Shown piece after piece: positions 46,333 through 51,880 of a stretch of DNA of 55,990 bases. The notes under the pieces were generated by a model that had not been told where the DNA came from, did no database searches, and saw nothing but the letters and a program-made list of their open reading frames with translations. Position numbers and translations under genes: made by a program. This DNA comes from a virus (Duplodnaviria; Caudoviricetes), in IMG/VR virus record IMGVR_UViG_3300030329_003406, positions 1 to 55,990 of that record, one strand, 5' to 3'. Numbering within the stretch: position 1 is the first letter of the stretch; each line of letters begins with the position of its first letter.

Positions 46333-46503
46333 ATGCAACTAGATGAAACAATATTGCAGACCAGGACTGTCACTACTATAGTTGATATCCTGAAGAAGAT
46401 CGTGGATGATATGAACCCACTGATCAGAGAGACACAAGATGTCTATGAAATTATCAAAGAACATGATAAAGCTAAAGCAAAGGTAAAATTTCAATATGAG
46501 TGA
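46333..46503 (+). CDS. Small hypothetical protein (56 aa)
   Basis: GGGAGATAA RBS; MQLDETILQTRTV... Confidence 0.6.
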   Translation: MQLDETILQTRTVTTIVDILKKIVDDMNPLIRETQDVYEIIKEHDKAKAKVKFQYE

Positions 46504-46741
46504 TGCGGCTTATGTCGTGTTCATCTCCCTAAAGGAGGAGGGGAAGGTAGTCGACCATCCCCTTTGTCCTTGCTCAACGGAGATAGAGGCGAGAGCATAC
46601 CGTGACGGTTACGTGGATGCTATAGTCAATCATACAGGAAAAGCCAACCGAGCCGAAGTATATGGACAGTTTAGTATACGAAAAGTTGGTGAAGAATTAG
46701 CTAATAATAACAAAAAAGAAGAAGGGAGTAAGAATGCCTGA
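46496..46741 (+). CDS. Hypothetical protein coupled to the Ubl gene
   Basis: Overlaps both neighbours by 8 nt. Confidence 0.6.
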   Translation: MSDAAYVVFISLKEEGKVVDHPLCPCSTEIEARAYRDGYVDAIVNHTGKANRAEVYGQFSIRKVGEELANNNKKEEGSKNA

Positions 46742-46937
46742 CATAAAAATACTAGAAGGTGGCGGCTTTGTAGACCATAGTGTAACATCAACAACAGTAG
46801 GTGGATTAAGAACTGAGAAGAGTATACCTCAGGGCTCATCTATATCTGTTGGTGGTAGAACTGTAGGTGATGATCATGCTTTAACAGATGGTGATCTAGT
46901 AGCTGCAGTACATAATGATAAAACTGGTGGAAAATAG
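46734..46937 (+). CDS. Ubiquitin-like (ThiS/MoaD beta-grasp) protein with C-terminal GG-K
   Basis: TTVGGLR, ISVGG and LTDGDLV MoaD-like motifs; ends DKTGGK; GGGAG RBS; near E2, JAB and E1 genes. Confidence 0.8.
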   Translation: MPDIKILEGGGFVDHSVTSTTVGGLRTEKSIPQGSSISVGGRTVGDDHALTDGDLVAAVHNDKTGGK

Positions 46938-46965
46938 AATGGCTAACCACGCAAGGTGAATTCTA

Positions 46966-47058
46966 GAGGGACTAATTGATTATTTGGGGGATGCTGAATG
47001 AGAAGGCAGTATCAGATTAGGCTTTTACGTGACTAAAGCTATAATTAATTAGTTCCTC
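46966..47058 (+). ncRNA. Three-way-junction RNA element with an 18-bp closing stem
   Basis: GAGGGACTAATTGATTAT/ATAATTAATTAGTTCCTC; inner GATGCTG/CAGTATC and GGCTTT/AAAGCT. Confidence 0.55.
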
Positions 47059-47082
47059 CCATCATAAACATAAGGAGATAAT

Positions 47083-47328
47083 ATGGCAAGATTAACAAAT
47101 TTAGATGCATTAAAGAGTGATCTCAATGCTTTAGTAGTAAAGATATTGACTTTAGGTAAAGCGGAAGAGAATGCAGGGAAATATGAGTATTATAAAGAGA
47201 AATTAAACATTGCAAGCGCATTAGAAGATATAATAAAGAAACATTTTAATAATACGGTATTCGGTGAAATGACTAATGAAGAAGCTAGAGATATAGCTGT
47301 TAATGGCTATAAACATAAAAAATGTTAG
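47083..47328 (+). CDS. Hypothetical helical protein
   Basis: AGGAGATAA RBS. Confidence 0.65.
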   Translation: MARLTNLDALKSDLNALVVKILTLGKAEENAGKYEYYKEKLNIASALEDIIKKHFNNTVFGEMTNEEARDIAVNGYKHKKC

Positions 47329-47510
47329 TGCCAGATAAAAATGGATATTTATGTCCAGAATGTGGAGAAGATTATCTTGAAGAAGGTGAAGCTGGTAATC
47401 TAGGCACAGGCCCTGATGGTATTCCTATAATGTGGTGTCCAACCTGTGAACTTATGTTAGATGAGCATGATTTTATGGATTATTATGAACCAGGGAGGGA
47501 TGATGAGTGA
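47322..47510 (+). CDS. Acidic zinc-ribbon protein
   Basis: CPEC...CPTC. Confidence 0.65.
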   Translation: MLVPDKNGYLCPECGEDYLEEGEAGNLGTGPDGIPIMWCPTCELMLDEHDFMDYYEPGRDDE

Positions 47511-47736
47511 ATATGTATCAGTATTAGATGGACATAACTTAAGATTTTGTAAAAAATGTAGTTCAGTATGGGAAGGACCATGGAAGAGGTTATATGGCCT
47601 AACTATCATAAAATACAGCAACTTAAGTTCATATAAGTTAAAAAGAGAACGTTGTTTAGAATGTGAAAGGGAGATAAATGGAACAAAAACTAACGCATGT
47701 ATCGGAGGCAAGAGATTGGTCACCAAATATTACTAA
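47503..47736 (+). CDS. Basic zinc-finger protein (start revised)
   Basis: CKKC...CLEC; GGAGG RBS before ATG 47500/47503. Confidence 0.6.
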   Translation: MSEYVSVLDGHNLRFCKKCSSVWEGPWKRLYGLTIIKYSNLSSYKLKRERCLECEREINGTKTNACIGGKRLVTKYY

Positions 47737-49108
47737 TCTAAATGAGCAGTTGTTATTAGGGCCTCAAAGAGAAATACTGGAATTAATTCAAGAAATTAAT
47801 AGAAGGTGGACTTTAGACCTAAATGCAACTAAAACATATAGATGGGGACCAGGATATATGGATAAAATAAAGAGATGGTATCGTGATCACTATGTTGAAG
47901 AGCATATGAAGAGAAAAATATCAACATTCTTTAATAAAGTAGCCGAAAAACACTGGTCAGTTAAGGAATTAGAGAAGAAATTAAGAGTTGTTGATGAGAA
48001 AATGGCCTCTAGACGTAGAAATGGTGCAGTTTTCCAAGATAATAGTGGTTTATTGGAAGAAAAACTAGAAATATTATCAAATAGAGTGGAATCTCAGTTG
48101 AGTGAAGCTAATAAACAGTTTAATTCTTCAGGAATACATATAAATGCAAGTTTATATCGCTATCAAAATACTAATAGGTATGATGCTGCAATTAAAGATG
48201 AATATGTAATACAGGTTTCTCTTCCACCAGGTAAAATGAACTTATTTGTGGGAGATACACCATATCAAATAGAGATAGGAGGCTCAATAATATGGTTTAG
48301 GCTTGACTTAATGAAACTTATATATACAATTTGCAATGAAAACTCAAGAATAGTTAATGATAATACATTTAAACTTAATTATACACCTTATGCTGAAACA
48401 GGTAGTAAGATTATAGCTCATTATTTTCCTGAATGGGAAGAAAATAGTGAAGGTAAAGAGTTGAAACATCCATATATAAGCGGTAGAAATGCATGGAATC
48501 AATTGAGAATTAATGATGAACTTATTGGATCACATGTATGTTTAGGTGAATTAACTGGTCATGTAGATAGACAAATGAAGAAATTAGACTTAGTTTCTCT
48601 ATGTGCAACACTAATGTTATGGAATTCTACGTTCCATATAGGTAGAACGCACCCATTAAACCAAATAAAGAAGGTATTTTGGGGTATTTCACCTGAAAAT
48701 AACACAGATGAGTTCAAAAATGCTGTAAATATGGTGAGTGCTGGTGATTGTGAGCATAATAATTGGGACGATCGATCTAATATAGACACCATGTATTGCG
48801 ATGAAACACAATGTGTATTTAGAGATAGTTGTACTACTTATAGAGTAGGCATGGATGTAGATCAAGAAGAACCTCAAGAAGAGCCTAGTGTTGGTGGCGT
48901 AATAGAGGTATTGCAGGCTATGGAAGAAGATTCTAGGGAAATTAATGCTCAAAGAACAGAAATAGAAGAAAGAATGAGACAAGAGAACCCTAATGGTCAA
49001 ATCGATGTAGATGAAGTGGCTAGATGGATTGAATTAGAAACACCTGAAGAACGGGTAATAAGATGGGCTGCCGAAAACGGTGGTGCAATTAACATAGGAG
49101 AAAGATAA
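47678..49108 (+). CDS. Prokaryotic E2 (ubiquitin-conjugating)-like protein with N-terminal coiled coil and Cys-rich C-terminal segment
   Basis: KHPYISG (H264)...HVCLG (C288) matches the E2 HPx...CLG pattern; translationally coupled to JAB. Confidence 0.65.
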   Translation: MEQKLTHVSEARDWSPNITNLNEQLLLGPQREILELIQEINRRWTLDLNATKTYRWGPGYMDKIKRWYRDHYVEEHMKRKISTFFNKVAEKHWSVKELEKKLRVVDEKMASRRRNGAVFQDNSGLLEEKLEILSNRVESQLSEANKQFNSSGIHINASLYRYQNTNRYDAAIKDEYVIQVSLPPGKMNLFVGDTPYQIEIGGSIIWFRLDLMKLIYTICNENSRIVNDNTFKLNYTPYAETGSKIIAHYFPEWEENSEGKELKHPYISGRNAWNQLRINDELIGSHVCLGELTGHVDRQMKKLDLVSLCATLMLWNSTFHIGRTHPLNQIKKVFWGISPENNTDEFKNAVNMVSAGDCEHNNWDDRSNIDTMYCDETQCVFRDSCTTYRVGMDVDQEEPQEEPSVGGVIEVLQAMEEDSREINAQRTEIEERMRQENPNGQIDVDEVARWIELETPEERVIRWAAENGGAINIGER

Positions 49109-49962
49109 TGGAATCAGAGTTTTATATAGAAGGTAAGGCCTGGGATAAAGTGATAAACTATGCACGATCTGCTTATGGTCAGTTTAAAGCTGAAATAGGT
49201 GGAATGATGGTAGTTGTTAAAGATCAGGATGGTGATTGGGAGTTAAAAGATCCAGTGATCATGAAACAAGAAGTGACTGCAGGTAATACTCATTTAGATA
49301 AAGATGAACTTGCTAAATATTATACTAAAGCAGCGATGAAATATGCCAAAGAAGAATTTAGATTCTGTTGGTGGCATTCTCATCATACAATGGGAGCTTT
49401 CTGGAGTGGTACTGACACTAATACTATAGATGAGTTTAGTGATGGAGACTTTAGCTTTGCTTTAGTAGTTAATCTTAAGGAAGAATATAAGTTTAGAGTA
49501 TCTGTATGGAAACCTATAGAGGCACATGAAGATGTTGAGCTTAATATACTTACTAAAGAAAAGAAAGTTCCAAAGAAAATAGAAGATGAGGTAAAAGAAA
49601 TGTGTCAAGCTGGAAATACAGCATGGAGGCATAAGTCCCTTAATAACAATTACTTACGTCCACAAGAAACACTATTTAATTTACCTTATGAACAAAATGA
49701 AGTGCCGTATGCACAGGTATATAAACTAATAGATAGACTACATAGAAATCTTATAGCTGGTGAAGTTACTTATGGTGATTACTATAGAAAGATACAAGAT
49801 GAAAATGAACGTCTAAAGACAGAAAATCTTGGCATGCGAATAAAGGTACTTAAAGAAGAAGAGTTAGCTAATGAATTATTATTCTCTACTCCTACAGATT
49901 TCATAGAAGAAGAAATAATAGATGATGAGTTAACCGATTGGAATAGGGGCTTCTTATGTTAA
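49108..49962 (+). CDS. JAB/MPN+ (JAMM) metallopeptidase
   Basis: E29 (KAEIGG) and WWHSHHTMGAFWSGTD (H90, H92, S100, D103). Confidence 0.88.
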   Translation: MESEFYIEGKAWDKVINYARSAYGQFKAEIGGMMVVVKDQDGDWELKDPVIMKQEVTAGNTHLDKDELAKYYTKAAMKYAKEEFRFCWWHSHHTMGAFWSGTDTNTIDEFSDGDFSFALVVNLKEEYKFRVSVWKPIEAHEDVELNILTKEKKVPKKIEDEVKEMCQAGNTAWRHKSLNNNYLRPQETLFNLPYEQNEVPYAQVYKLIDRLHRNLIAGEVTYGDYYRKIQDENERLKTENLGMRIKVLKEEELANELLFSTPTDFIEEEIIDDELTDWNRGFLC

Positions 49963-50624
49963 ATGCAAGGTATTCTGGAATAGTAGATAATGCTAACCAG
50001 TTTGTCTTTCATATCTTGGGCTGTGGAGCTATTGGTAGTTCTGCAGCCACCCAGATATGCAGGATGGGCGGTGAGAAGTTCTATCTATATGATTATGATC
50101 AAGTAGAGAGCGTTAATATAGGCGTGTCTCAATACAATCATGATGATATAGGTAAAAATAAAGTAGATGCTTTAAAAGAACATCTATTAAGTATCAATCC
50201 TAATATAAAAGTAGAGGTAGAACATGCTTTATTTGAGCATTATTCATACCAAGGTGAGAATGATATAGCTATATTAGGGTTTGATAGTATGAAATCAAGA
50301 TTAGATGCAGTAGAAGCGCTTTGTAGATTCAAGAATGCTAAGCCTAAATATATTATTGACGGTCGTATGGGAGCTGAACATTATCAGCAATATATAATAG
50401 ATAAGCCGACAGTCGCTAAATATACAAAATGTTGGTATTCTGATGAGACAGGAAGCACAGAACCTTGTAATGCAAAAGCTACAAGTTACTGCTCTAATAT
50501 GAGTGGCTCATTTATAGCTAACTCAGTTAGAAAGCTGATCATGAACCAGCCATATAATAGAGAGTTCTCGTTTAACTTCCCAATTATGTTGTTGGAAAAA
50601 ACAAAAATGATTAGTAAATTATAG
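49956..50624 (+). CDS. E1-like ThiF/MoeB adenylating enzyme
   Basis: GCGAIG, DYDQVESVN, GKNKV, GFDSMKSR and IDGRMG; candidate catalytic C171 (EPCNAK). Confidence 0.92.
   Translation: MLNARYSGIVDNANQFVFHILGCGAIGSSAATQICRMGGEKFYLYDYDQVESVNIGVSQYNHDDIGKNKVDALKEHLLSINPNIKVEVEHALFEHYSYQGENDIAILGFDSMKSRLDAVEALCRFKNAKPKYIIDGRMGAEHYQQYIIDKPTVAKYTKCWYSDETGSTEPCNAKATSYCSNMSGSFIANSVRKLIMNQPYNREFSFNFPIMLLEKTKMISKL
50592..50620 (+). promoter_or_regulatory. Sigma70-like promoter of the recombination/replication operon
   Basis: TTGGAA-N17-TAAATT. Confidence 0.5.
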
Positions 50625-51355: not shown

Positions 51356-51880
51356 ATGGCTAGAACATTGACAGTTAGAAAAGGTAATGGAGCTAATCCT
51401 TATTCAGAAGGTTGGCATAGAGTAACTATCTCTAGTGCTAAATATGGAGAATGGAATGGATCTAAATTCCTAGACGTATGTTTCGAAGGATATTCTGAGA
51501 AATGTAACATGAGAGTATACGAGAAAATGGGGAAAGATGGAGAAGAATTTGCTATAGGGCAAGTATTCCGCTTTGCAGATGCTGGTATAACTGATGGGTT
51601 AGAAGATGCTGATGGTAACGTGACTATTAAAATGGATGATTCACCTGATACTTTGGTAGGAAAAGAAGTAAACATATTCCTATATAAAGATGGTGAGTAC
51701 TCAAGAGTATTAAGTCAAGTTGCACCAGTTACATTTAAAAATATAATAGAAGAGTTTACTGATAGTGATGTAGATTTCTGGAAAGGTAAAGCTGATACCT
51801 ATTATACTAAATACATACAACCGAAGTTGTCTAATACTACTACGGAGACAAATGATGTAACGGCAGATATGCCATTCTAA
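51356..51880 (+). CDS. Putative single-stranded DNA-binding protein
   Basis: Follows ERF; EGWHRVTI start; acidic tail ending DMPF. Confidence 0.65.
   Translation: MARTLTVRKGNGANPYSEGWHRVTISSAKYGEWNGSKFLDVCFEGYSEKCNMRVYEKMGKDGEEFAIGQVFRFADAGITDGLEDADGNVTIKMDDSPDTLVGKEVNIFLYKDGEYSRVLSQVAPVTFKNIIEEFTDSDVDFWKGKADTYYTKYIQPKLSNTTTETNDVTADMPF

Follow-up and report, generated by a model that had tools for sequence, protein, structure and literature searches.

Characterised prokaryotic systems that conjugate ubiquitin-like proteins (Ubls), namely Bil, Bub and type II CBASS (cyclic-oligonucleotide-based anti-phage signalling system), serve bacterial defence against phages in the published sources consulted (bioRxiv 10.1101/2023.09.26.559546; 10.1101/2023.09.04.556158; PMC11601596; PMC11601603). 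Could a phage carry such a system of its own? The question is raised by IMG/VR virus record IMGVR_UViG_3300030329_003406, which we analysed in full (55,990 bases; hereafter the window). An earlier note on this DNA, made from the sequence alone, had singled out four plus-strand genes coding for a 67-amino-acid (aa) Ubl, a 476-aa protein with an E2-like motif, a JAB/JAMM metallopeptidase and a ThiF-type E1 enzyme, and all four open reading frames (ORFs) lie where it had placed them (Table 1). From sequence conservation and structural models, we propose that they form a phage-encoded ubiquitin-like conjugation cassette, a phage-borne relative of the prokaryotic Ubl conjugation systems, and we put the probability of this reading at roughly 0.6.

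Conservation of the gene set

Homologues of the 476-aa protein are encoded in twelve IMG/VR loci and on one short contig of a metagenome-assembled genome (MAG). At all 13 of these loci, an ORF of 68-111 aa ending in [KN][TKR]GG plus 0-9 residues is found at most 1.3 kb upstream, and homologues of the JAB and E1 lie downstream in 10 of the 12 viral loci, the available sequence of the other two ending right after the gene for the large protein. On the MAG contig (L016) the four cassette genes are contiguous. The cassette always sits within a replication block, and in the closer loci it is followed by Erf, a gene resembling that of single-stranded DNA-binding protein (SSB) and a primase-helicase. 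The relatives of the 476-aa protein are unnamed metagenomic sequences only, 13 in one database and, in a second, 203 at E<=1e-3 among 1.84 billion representatives. Since there are 203 homologues, a GG-ended ORF at 13/13 loci and a JAB and E1 at 10/12 viral loci, this association is more than chance.

The four proteins evolve at different rates. Identities to the window proteins (Ubl/476-aa protein/JAB/E1) are 71/40/63/83% at locus L002, 88/33/57/75% at L004, 68/29/53/63% at L005 and 49/25/48/68% at L006. The large protein is therefore the fastest-evolving member, with 25-40% identity where the E1 retains 63-83% and the Ubl 49-88%, a divergence that fits a part devoted to target recognition. 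The E1 has many relatives: they fall into 1345 clusters at E<=1e-5, and identities among the top 120 range from 63 to 93%.

A pattern scan of 185,579 species genomes (one per species) yielded no confirmed relative of the 476-aa protein, and for the E1 type it returned only the L016 contig and two 29%-identical cassettes in MAGs. No match was obtained in 50,697 phage records by megablast of the cassette or by tblastn of the 476-aa protein or the JAB. One of these two cassettes adjoins a tyrosine integrase on a Nitrospirota MAG contig (L017, 3696-9152), and because of this integrase it probably belongs to an integrated element. It has an ArdA anti-restriction gene between JAB and E1, and its Ubl counterpart, of 139 aa and ending in GGI, matches Pfam ThiS (in two stretches) and SAMP2.

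The ubiquitin-like protein and the E2-like protein

The 67-aa protein has no match in the Pfam, PADLOC, NCBIfam or PHROGs libraries. Its model, obtained from 17 sequences (predicted local distance difference test, pLDDT, 83.4), displays the elements of the beta-grasp fold in their usual order, as in ubiquitin-like modifiers, and a Foldseek search of the PDB with it returns mostly beta-grasp proteins, headed by Caldiarchaeum ubiquitin (E 1e-3, prob 1.0) and followed by Mth1743, SUMO, NEDD8, ThiS and MoaD. The C-terminal glycines G65 and G66 are invariant in the 17 sequences, and V56, A57, K63, G65 and G66 are invariant across short and long forms of the protein. Of 44 Ubl homologues, one is truncated, eleven end exactly at ...KTGG and 32 carry 1-9 varied extra residues. 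More distant viral loci have, directly upstream of the large gene, an ORF of 99-111 aa that ends in ...KRGG or ...KKGG plus three residues. The window protein, rightly described before as beta-grasp-like and ending in GG-K (modelled fold, TGGK end), is a precursor with one residue beyond the di-glycine.

The 476-aa protein (AlphaFold model with pLDDT 85.5 and a predicted template modelling score, pTM, of 0.77) comprises an N-terminal helical domain (residues ~1-120) and a beta-rich core (~125-335) resembling the ubiquitin-conjugating (UBC) fold, followed by a cluster of four cysteines (C358, C374, C379, C385), an acidic linker and a W..GG tail. When the model was compared with 48,161 chains by VIA-align, 35 of the 50 matches listed were helical bundles on residues 15-120, and all 15 listed matches that reach the beta-rich core were chains of the UBC superfamily, twelve of them within ~121-341 and three spanning 8-322. 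These are the E2s UBE2E1, UbcH10, 1yrv, UBE2S, Ube2K, UbcH5b/c, 4ccg and 8jwu, together with the UEV-like FTS, the RWD domain of Knl1 and a further RWD match that, from the entry titles, we take to be listerin/Ltn1.

Conservation points to the same core. Across 71 full-length relatives, G28, G59, C288, G290, P326, C379 and C385 are invariant, and P265, W315, T324, N328, C358 and C374 nearly so. A motif HP[YF]-x9..37-C-x-G is present in 83 of 105 full-length homologues, with 21 as the most frequent spacing (the classic E2 spacing is HPN-x7-C), so that the family possesses an invariant cysteine downstream of an HPN-like motif. The 512-aa Nitrospirota homologue from L017, which hhalign aligns with the family (E 6.6e-4, prob 27%), reads HPH-x7-CLG. 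Fainter signals come from this homologue, from the nearest Pfam-named language-model clusters, which are viral and contain Prok-E2_D in 14-39% of their members (scores 0.86-0.87), a lead only, and from a non-significant alignment of PRTRC_B with the family that pairs its C-x-G cysteine with C288. Weak as each of these three is, they agree with the fold matches on a core that, judging from the model, would be a diverged UBC/E2-like domain.

The C-terminal tail (49040-49105) contains a conserved ETPEERVIRWAAENGGAINIGER after the acidic linker, which is modelled with low confidence. A W..GG tail is present in 37 of the 105 full-length homologues, the window protein included, with the GG 1-16 residues from the end, and could act as a docking peptide or as a second activatable tail.

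The JAB peptidase and the E1 enzyme

The JAB matches Pfam Prok-JAB at E 2.8e-5 (24.4 bits, just below the 25-bit cut-off) and, among the PADLOC models, five for JAB (best E 4.7e-5). Of the proteins with a solved structure, an Rpn11-like one of Caldiarchaeum is closest in sequence (E 0.002), and E29, H90, H92, S100 and D103 align with it; the JAMM catalytic motif is thus complete, and the residues read as such in the earlier note (E29, H90-S91-H92, S100, D103) are all in place. No similarity to Cap3 or BilC was found beyond the general JAB fold. We predict that the peptidase exposes the di-glycine of the Ubl, and it possibly also removes conjugates.

The E1 consists of a single ThiF domain (Pfam E 2.5e-20, 73.1 bits against a cut-off of 28.1, residues 19-207). 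Invariant in 26 sequences are R5, GCGAIG (22-27), D46, N54, K69, D110, C171 and C179, which include the GxGxxG motif, aspartate, lysine and arginine finger of an adenylation domain. C171 and C179 sit between the last core strand and the next helix, in the crossover region, and may be equivalent to the cysteines of ThiF and MoeB. The GCGAIG motif and C171 had been recognised before; C171 is, however, not the sole candidate for the catalytic cysteine, because C179 is equally invariant. The solved relatives by sequence are MccB, UBA5, PaaA and MoeB. The Rossmann region, over approximately residues 2-130 only, also matches 33 PADLOC 'E1-E2' (Cap2) models (best E 8.3e-16). No rhodanese domain (Pfam) and no separate cysteine domain were found. 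The enzyme is similar in size to the homodimeric minimal E1s UBA5, ThiF and BubCD (PMC11601596) and is probably itself homodimeric.

A proposed conjugation pathway and its alternatives

Following what is known of these families, the JAB would trim the 67-aa beta-grasp protein back to Gly66, and the minimal ThiF-type E1 would adenylate the exposed glycine and may hold the Ubl on Cys179 or Cys171. The Ubl would then move to Cys288 in the UBC-like core of the 476-aa protein, whose helical N-domain, cysteine cluster and C-terminal tail would pick the target in the style of an E2/E3 hybrid, and would finally be attached; removal of the tag may be a second task of the JAB. The cassette would be expressed together with the replication genes, early expression being suggested by the gene neighbours only, and its targets would be host or phage proteins. 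The roles put forward earlier, namely host takeover, anti-defence and exclusion of competing phages, are speculative.

Several findings weigh against such a pathway. The model of the 476-aa protein has no Foldseek match in the PDB at E<=0.001, none of the 71 family members matches Prok-E2 or UQ_con in Pfam at E<=1, and the protein finds no match in PADLOC, NCBIfam or PHROGs and none with the curated E2 models (UQ_con, Prok-E2_A to E). With FANCL UBC-like domain 3, one of the 71 members reaches E 0.065. A search of PDB sequences with the 71-sequence profile (hmmsearch) returned nothing but coiled-coil noise. The UBC fold that had been assumed for the 476-aa protein may be present, judging from the VIA-align matches of the core, all of them to the UBC superfamily, but is recovered neither by Foldseek against the PDB nor by a Pfam E2 family. 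Comparison of the family with four PRTRC_B proteins (Prok-E2_D) by hhalign is not significant (E 0.033, prob 1.6%); its top match pairs the C-x-G cysteine of PRTRC_B with C288. The HPY264-266 and C288-L-G290 to which the earlier note had drawn attention are present, but H264 is not invariant, and most of the 22 homologues that lack HP[YF] have F/Y-P-[YF]. JAB peptidases also act in sulfur-carrier pathways (CysO/Mec). The sulfur carriers ThiS and MoaD are among the closest solved structures to the Ubl model, among the NCBIfam models the E1 scores best with ThiF, and it reads NIGVSQ at the position of the N-L-x-R-Q motif typical of MoeB-type enzymes, the arginine being missing. The presence of an E2 had been advanced as an argument for protein conjugation over sulfur transfer; with a Ubl model so close to ThiS and MoaD, nothing decides the matter on that ground.

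In a sulfur-carrier pathway, a ThiS-like protein would be converted to a thiocarboxylate by a ThiF-like E1 and would pass its sulfur to a small molecule, a nucleotide or a nucleic acid; the 476-aa protein would be the sulfur-accepting or sulfur-inserting enzyme, and the JAB would only mature the carrier. A Ubl shaped like ThiS or MoaD and an E1 resembling ThiF are what such a pathway would call for. However, the E1 reaches 75.9 bits against the NCBIfam equivalog cut-off of 159 for ThiF and 33.2 against 266 for MoeB, falls below every curated cut-off (ThiF, MoeB, PRTRC_ThiF, SAMP E1 and the 6A-MBL Cap2 protein) and lacks a rhodanese domain. The absence of thiamine and molybdopterin genes claimed earlier holds for the 56 ORFs of the window scanned with Pfam, and the same is true of cysteine desulfurase, rhodanese, PP-loop, ThiG, ThiH and MoaE families, although host enzymes could serve instead. 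By its E1 scores and the partner synthases, which were not found, the cassette does not belong to the ThiF/ThiS or MoeB/MoaD sulfur-carrier systems; the shortfall against the equivalog cut-offs lowers the chance of such membership and leaves room for sulfur-carrier chemistry. In addition, the core of the 476-aa protein matches UBC/RWD folds only and contributes an invariant cysteine. We therefore consider sulfur transfer unlikely.

It is equally improbable, in our view, that tagging takes place independently of an E2, with the E1 alone conjugating and the 476-aa protein serving as adaptor, scaffold or main substrate. Archaeal SAMP/UbaA provides a precedent for an E1 that conjugates without an E2, and the weakness of the UBC-like assignment at the sequence level would be accounted for. 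In a variant, the W..GG tail of the 476-aa protein would possibly also be activated, by analogy with the CD-NTase tail in type II CBASS; the GG found in the tail of 37/105 homologues does recall the conjugation of CD-NTase C-termini by Cap2 (bioRxiv 10.1101/2023.09.26.559546; PMC11601603). However, C288-x-G290 is invariant in 71 sequences whereas the W..GG tail is restricted to those 37, an invariant cysteine after HPx on a UBC-like fold is the feature of a catalytic E2, and the separate Ubl that is always present makes a second activated tail unnecessary.

Least credible is a purely counter-defensive role, in which the JAB would strip host conjugates of the Bil, Bub or CBASS type while the Ubl and E1 would compete with the host systems and have no targets of their own: the characterised bacterial systems are indeed anti-phage (bioRxiv 10.1101/2023.09.26.559546; 10.1101/2023.09.04.556158; PMC11601596) and L017 carries ArdA between its JAB and E1, but a deconjugase or decoy would need neither a conserved E1 nor an invariant-cysteine E2-like protein and its own Ubl in 13/13 loci, and the JAB resembles Cap3 and BilC in no more than the general fold.

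Comparison with known systems

Whether compared with Bil, Bub, Cap2/Cap3, PRTRC or ThiF/MoeB, the cassette stays below the curated cut-offs. Its gene order is nonetheless that of Bil, where bilA-bilB-bilC-bilD encode Ubl, E2, JAB and E1 (bioRxiv 10.1101/2023.09.26.559546). In the precursor of BilA, as many as nine non-conserved residues come after a conserved glycine and are trimmed by BilC (bioRxiv 10.1101/2023.09.26.559546; 10.1101/2023.09.04.556158), and as described Bil has no E3, its E2 being thought to choose the targets (bioRxiv 10.1101/2023.09.26.559546; 10.1101/2023.09.04.556158; PMC11601596). The phage cassette shares with Bil the organisation in four separate genes and the precursor tail after the glycine. 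However, its E1 is a 222-aa single ThiF domain and does not have the architecture of the Bil E1 (PMC11601596), and the histidine downstream of the catalytic cysteine of BilB (bioRxiv 10.1101/2023.09.26.559546) has no conserved counterpart, H295 being variable. Moreover, Bil is bacterial and defensive, whereas the phage cassette is found in phage replication modules.

Bub systems are characterised by JAB-E1 and Ubl-E2 fusions, serine in place of the E2 cysteine, oxyester intermediates and a DUF6527 serine protease (PMC11601596). The phage cassette resembles them (6E/DUF6527) in its minimal, probably homodimeric ThiF/UBA5-like E1 without a cysteine domain, its putative diverged UBC-fold E2 and its predicted glycine-exposing JAB (PMC11601596). 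However, none of its genes are fused, the E1 and the E2-like protein each have an invariant cysteine, and Pfam scans of the window gave no DUF6527 match, so that it does not qualify as a Bub system. In type II CBASS, Cap2 is an E2-E1 fusion that conjugates the CD-NTase without a Ubl (bioRxiv 10.1101/2023.09.26.559546; PMC11601603). The phage E1 shares with it the match to Cap2 models in the Rossmann part and the JAB partner; unlike Cap2 it stands alone, and no CD-NTase was found in the window by the same scans, which sets the cassette apart from Cap2/Cap3 systems.

PRTRC cassettes have the order E2 (Prok-E2_D), JAB and short ThiF (~245 aa) in common with the phage. The four Prok-E2_D proteins that we fetched are PRTRC_B, encoded in the order PRTRC_F, B, A (JAB) and ThiF, and have an invariant C-x-G. 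In size, the phage E1 comes closer to PRTRC ThiF and the minimal BubCD E1 domain than to the E1 of Bil. The likeness to PRTRC drawn in the earlier note is therefore sound as to gene order, but no PRTRC cut-off is reached: the JAB scores 14.7 bits against 101.8 for PRTRC_A, the E1 27.1 against 144.75 for PRTRC_ThiF, and the 476-aa protein has no match to PRTRC_B. The phage E2-like protein is also twice as long, with extra domains, and neither ParB nor PRTRC_F was detected in the window, which places the cassette outside the PRTRC systems. To our knowledge, PRTRC systems are uncharacterised.

In the openly accessible main texts that could be searched, the only phage-encoded ubiquitin, Ubl or E1 that we could find is the Ubl-JAB pair of lambda and T1, where TAPI (Ubl) is paired with TAPK (JAB and NlpC) in tail assembly (PMC1779556). 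That pair belongs to the tail module and comes without E1 or E2, whereas the present cassette has both and lies in the replication module.

Probable relatives in Crassvirales and Flavobacterium phages

More distant relatives of the E1, ~28-37% identical over the matched part, are present in 76 phage records, of which 29 are named for Bacteroides, another 29 for Flavobacterium, 12 are 'uncultured' and 6 bear other names. Literature searches on ThiF or ubiquitin in crAss-like phages brought up unrelated papers only. Most of these E1 genes are labelled 'thiamine biosynthesis protein' and some hypothetical, ThiF or 'E1 enzyme family protein'. In crAss001 (locus L014, 76475-87035), bajarodcaudo virus 1, cr128_1 and FpV4, a 420-444 aa protein is followed by a 381-423 aa protein and then by ThiF, with primase/toprim and UDG genes nearby. 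A JAB domain in the middle protein could be confirmed in crAss001 only, where gp77 is labelled 'metalloprotease', and the 420-444 aa family displays an invariant YMHSH ... C-x-G. The model of the 476-aa protein has weak Foldseek matches to a crAss-like virus protein (E 0.012, prob 0.99) and to a 435-aa protein of cr128_1 (E 0.25, prob 0.85), whose length corresponds to the gene that precedes the E1 of cr128_1 by two positions. By hhalign, the 476-aa family is not significantly similar to four gp78-like sequences (E 0.27) or to crAss001 gp78 alone (E 0.57); the match to the four centres on the C-x-G cysteine.

The cassette of Crassvirales and Fipvunavirus (crAss001 gp79-gp76) is like that of the window in its order of large protein, JAB-like protein and ThiF beside replication genes. 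It differs in that its large protein has no significant profile similarity, gp79 is not recognisably a Ubl, and the crAss001 E1 has a long N-terminal extension of ~160 aa. A possible Ubl at the beginning of gp79 found no support (hhalign E 0.2 over 12 columns). We regard the link between these phages and the cassette as probable but unproven.

Cassette layout and genomic context

The coordinates of the cassette genes and of the small ORFs that accompany them are given in Table 1.

Table 1. Genes and small ORFs of the cassette region in the window.
Feature	Coordinates	Strand	Remarks
81-aa ORF, no known family	46496..46741	+	Last 8 nt shared with the beginning of the Ubl gene
Ubiquitin-like protein, 67 aa, ends ...NDKTGG-K	46734..46937	+	Beta-grasp (model); one residue after the di-glycine
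81-aa small ORF	47083..47328	+	First gene of the overlapping chain that reaches the E1
62-aa zinc-ribbon protein (CPEC ... CPTC)	47322..47510	+	Weak Pfam zinc-ribbon matches
CxxC...CxxC zinc-ribbon ORF	47461..47736	+	Last 59 nt shared, in another frame, with the beginning of the 476-aa gene
476-aa multidomain protein, predicted diverged UBC/E2-like	47678..49108	+	HPY264-266, invariant C288-x-G290
JAB/JAMM metallopeptidase, 284 aa, with C-terminal extension	49108..49962	+	Prok-JAB, PADLOC JAB, Rpn11-like
Minimal ThiF-type E1 adenylating enzyme, 222 aa	49956..50624	+	Pfam ThiF

The stop codon of the 476-aa gene overlaps the JAB start in TAATG, and the JAB stop overlaps the E1 start by 7 nucleotides (nt) in ATGTTAA, in agreement with the translational coupling reported for the last three genes. 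A non-coding gap of 145 nt (46938-47082) separates the Ubl gene from a chain of six overlapping genes that ends with the E1, and a simple scan called no terminator-like site in it. The gap could set a higher ratio of Ubl to enzyme expression.

The list of four genes proved incomplete, as it had missed the small conserved ORFs at 46496-46741, 47322-47510 and 47461-47736. Homologues of the first are found by tblastn directly upstream of the Ubl in loci L002-L006 (48-94% identity); it has no Pfam family, and its coupling and co-conservation are what suggest that it may be part of the system. Between the Ubl gene and the 476-aa gene there are three further small ORFs. The 81-aa ORF at 47083-47328 has no family above noise in Pfam, PADLOC, NCBIfam or PHROGs and no tblastn match in related loci at E<=1e-3, and its membership in the cassette is uncertain. 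The 62-aa ORF has a best Pfam zinc-ribbon match of E 5e-4, below the cut-off, and copies in L002 (85% identical) and L005 (36%). The CxxC...CxxC ORF overlaps the large gene in the same way at L002, L005 and L006 and has C30, C33, W37, C65 and C68 invariant in 4/4 sequences. It has no Pfam family, its true start is probably an internal methionine, and its product could serve the cassette as an accessory, E3-like or regulatory component.

CheckV puts the completeness of the virus record, all of which the window covers, at 100. Minus-strand genes from ~2 to 42.8 kb form a structural block, among them those for the large terminase, a portal of the P22 type, a major capsid protein like that of SU10 and a tail spike carrying an S74 chaperone domain, and a plus-strand block from ~43 kb carries Erf, a primase-helicase, a RusA/PDDEXK resolvase and the Ubl cassette; the sign of the GC skew flips at the boundary between the two blocks (~43 kb). 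The phage had been described as apparently lytic, and this agrees with a complete tailed-phage record in which a Pfam scan detected no integrase among the 56 ORFs covered, many of which match nothing. A promoter scan was uninformative, as it returned 41 sites where 40.7 were expected. A look-up of the sequencing runs listed only marine DNA metagenomes and no RNA run.

Five very large minus-strand ORFs occupy positions 2-22797 of the window (875+ aa, open at the window end, then 2996, 636, 755 and 1510 aa). None has a Pfam match, and the four complete ones have no PHROG match either. Since their genes lie downstream of those for the tail, such giant proteins may be carried in the virion or ejected from it.

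The gene that follows Erf (51356-51880, plus strand) encodes a 174-aa protein with no library match and the C-terminus ...ADMPF. Its homologues end in [MI]PF at 5/5 loci (window, L002, L004, L005 and L006). A similar acidic ...PF tip is the partner-binding end of bacterial SSB, and because of this resemblance the product is probably a phage SSB. Ten of the 105 full-length homologues of the 476-aa protein likewise end in an acidic ...PF tip, as do the SSB-like neighbours at 5/5 loci. A link to the replication machinery is hinted at by these shared tips and by the constant position of the cassette within the replication block.

Implications for phage biology

More broadly, it is conceivable that a large and hitherto undescribed group of phages of Bacteroidota-type hosts, comprising abundant marine podovirus-like phages and, more distantly, Crassvirales including the cultured crAss001, runs its own Ubl tagging from the replication module. 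A fast-evolving E2/E3 hybrid would choose the targets, and the ...PF tip borne by some of its relatives may recruit it to the hub that the SSB-like protein of the phage also uses, where replisome, recombination or host defence proteins would be tagged. We offer this wider picture tentatively and place limited weight on it.

If the cassette does conjugate its Ubl, viruses too would wield such conjugation, as a weapon or a regulator, in the conflict between phages and bacteria, and a complete set in lytic-looking phages would show the same chemistry at work for them. Many marine viral contigs have kept the set (203 E2-like representatives, 1345 E1 clusters), and its fast-evolving E2-like protein would offer a handle for finding what phages need to tag. 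Likely relatives in the cultured crAss001 and in Flavobacterium phages make the proposal testable at the bench, and the link to these phages, if confirmed, would replace the label 'thiamine biosynthesis protein' that most of their E1 records now bear.

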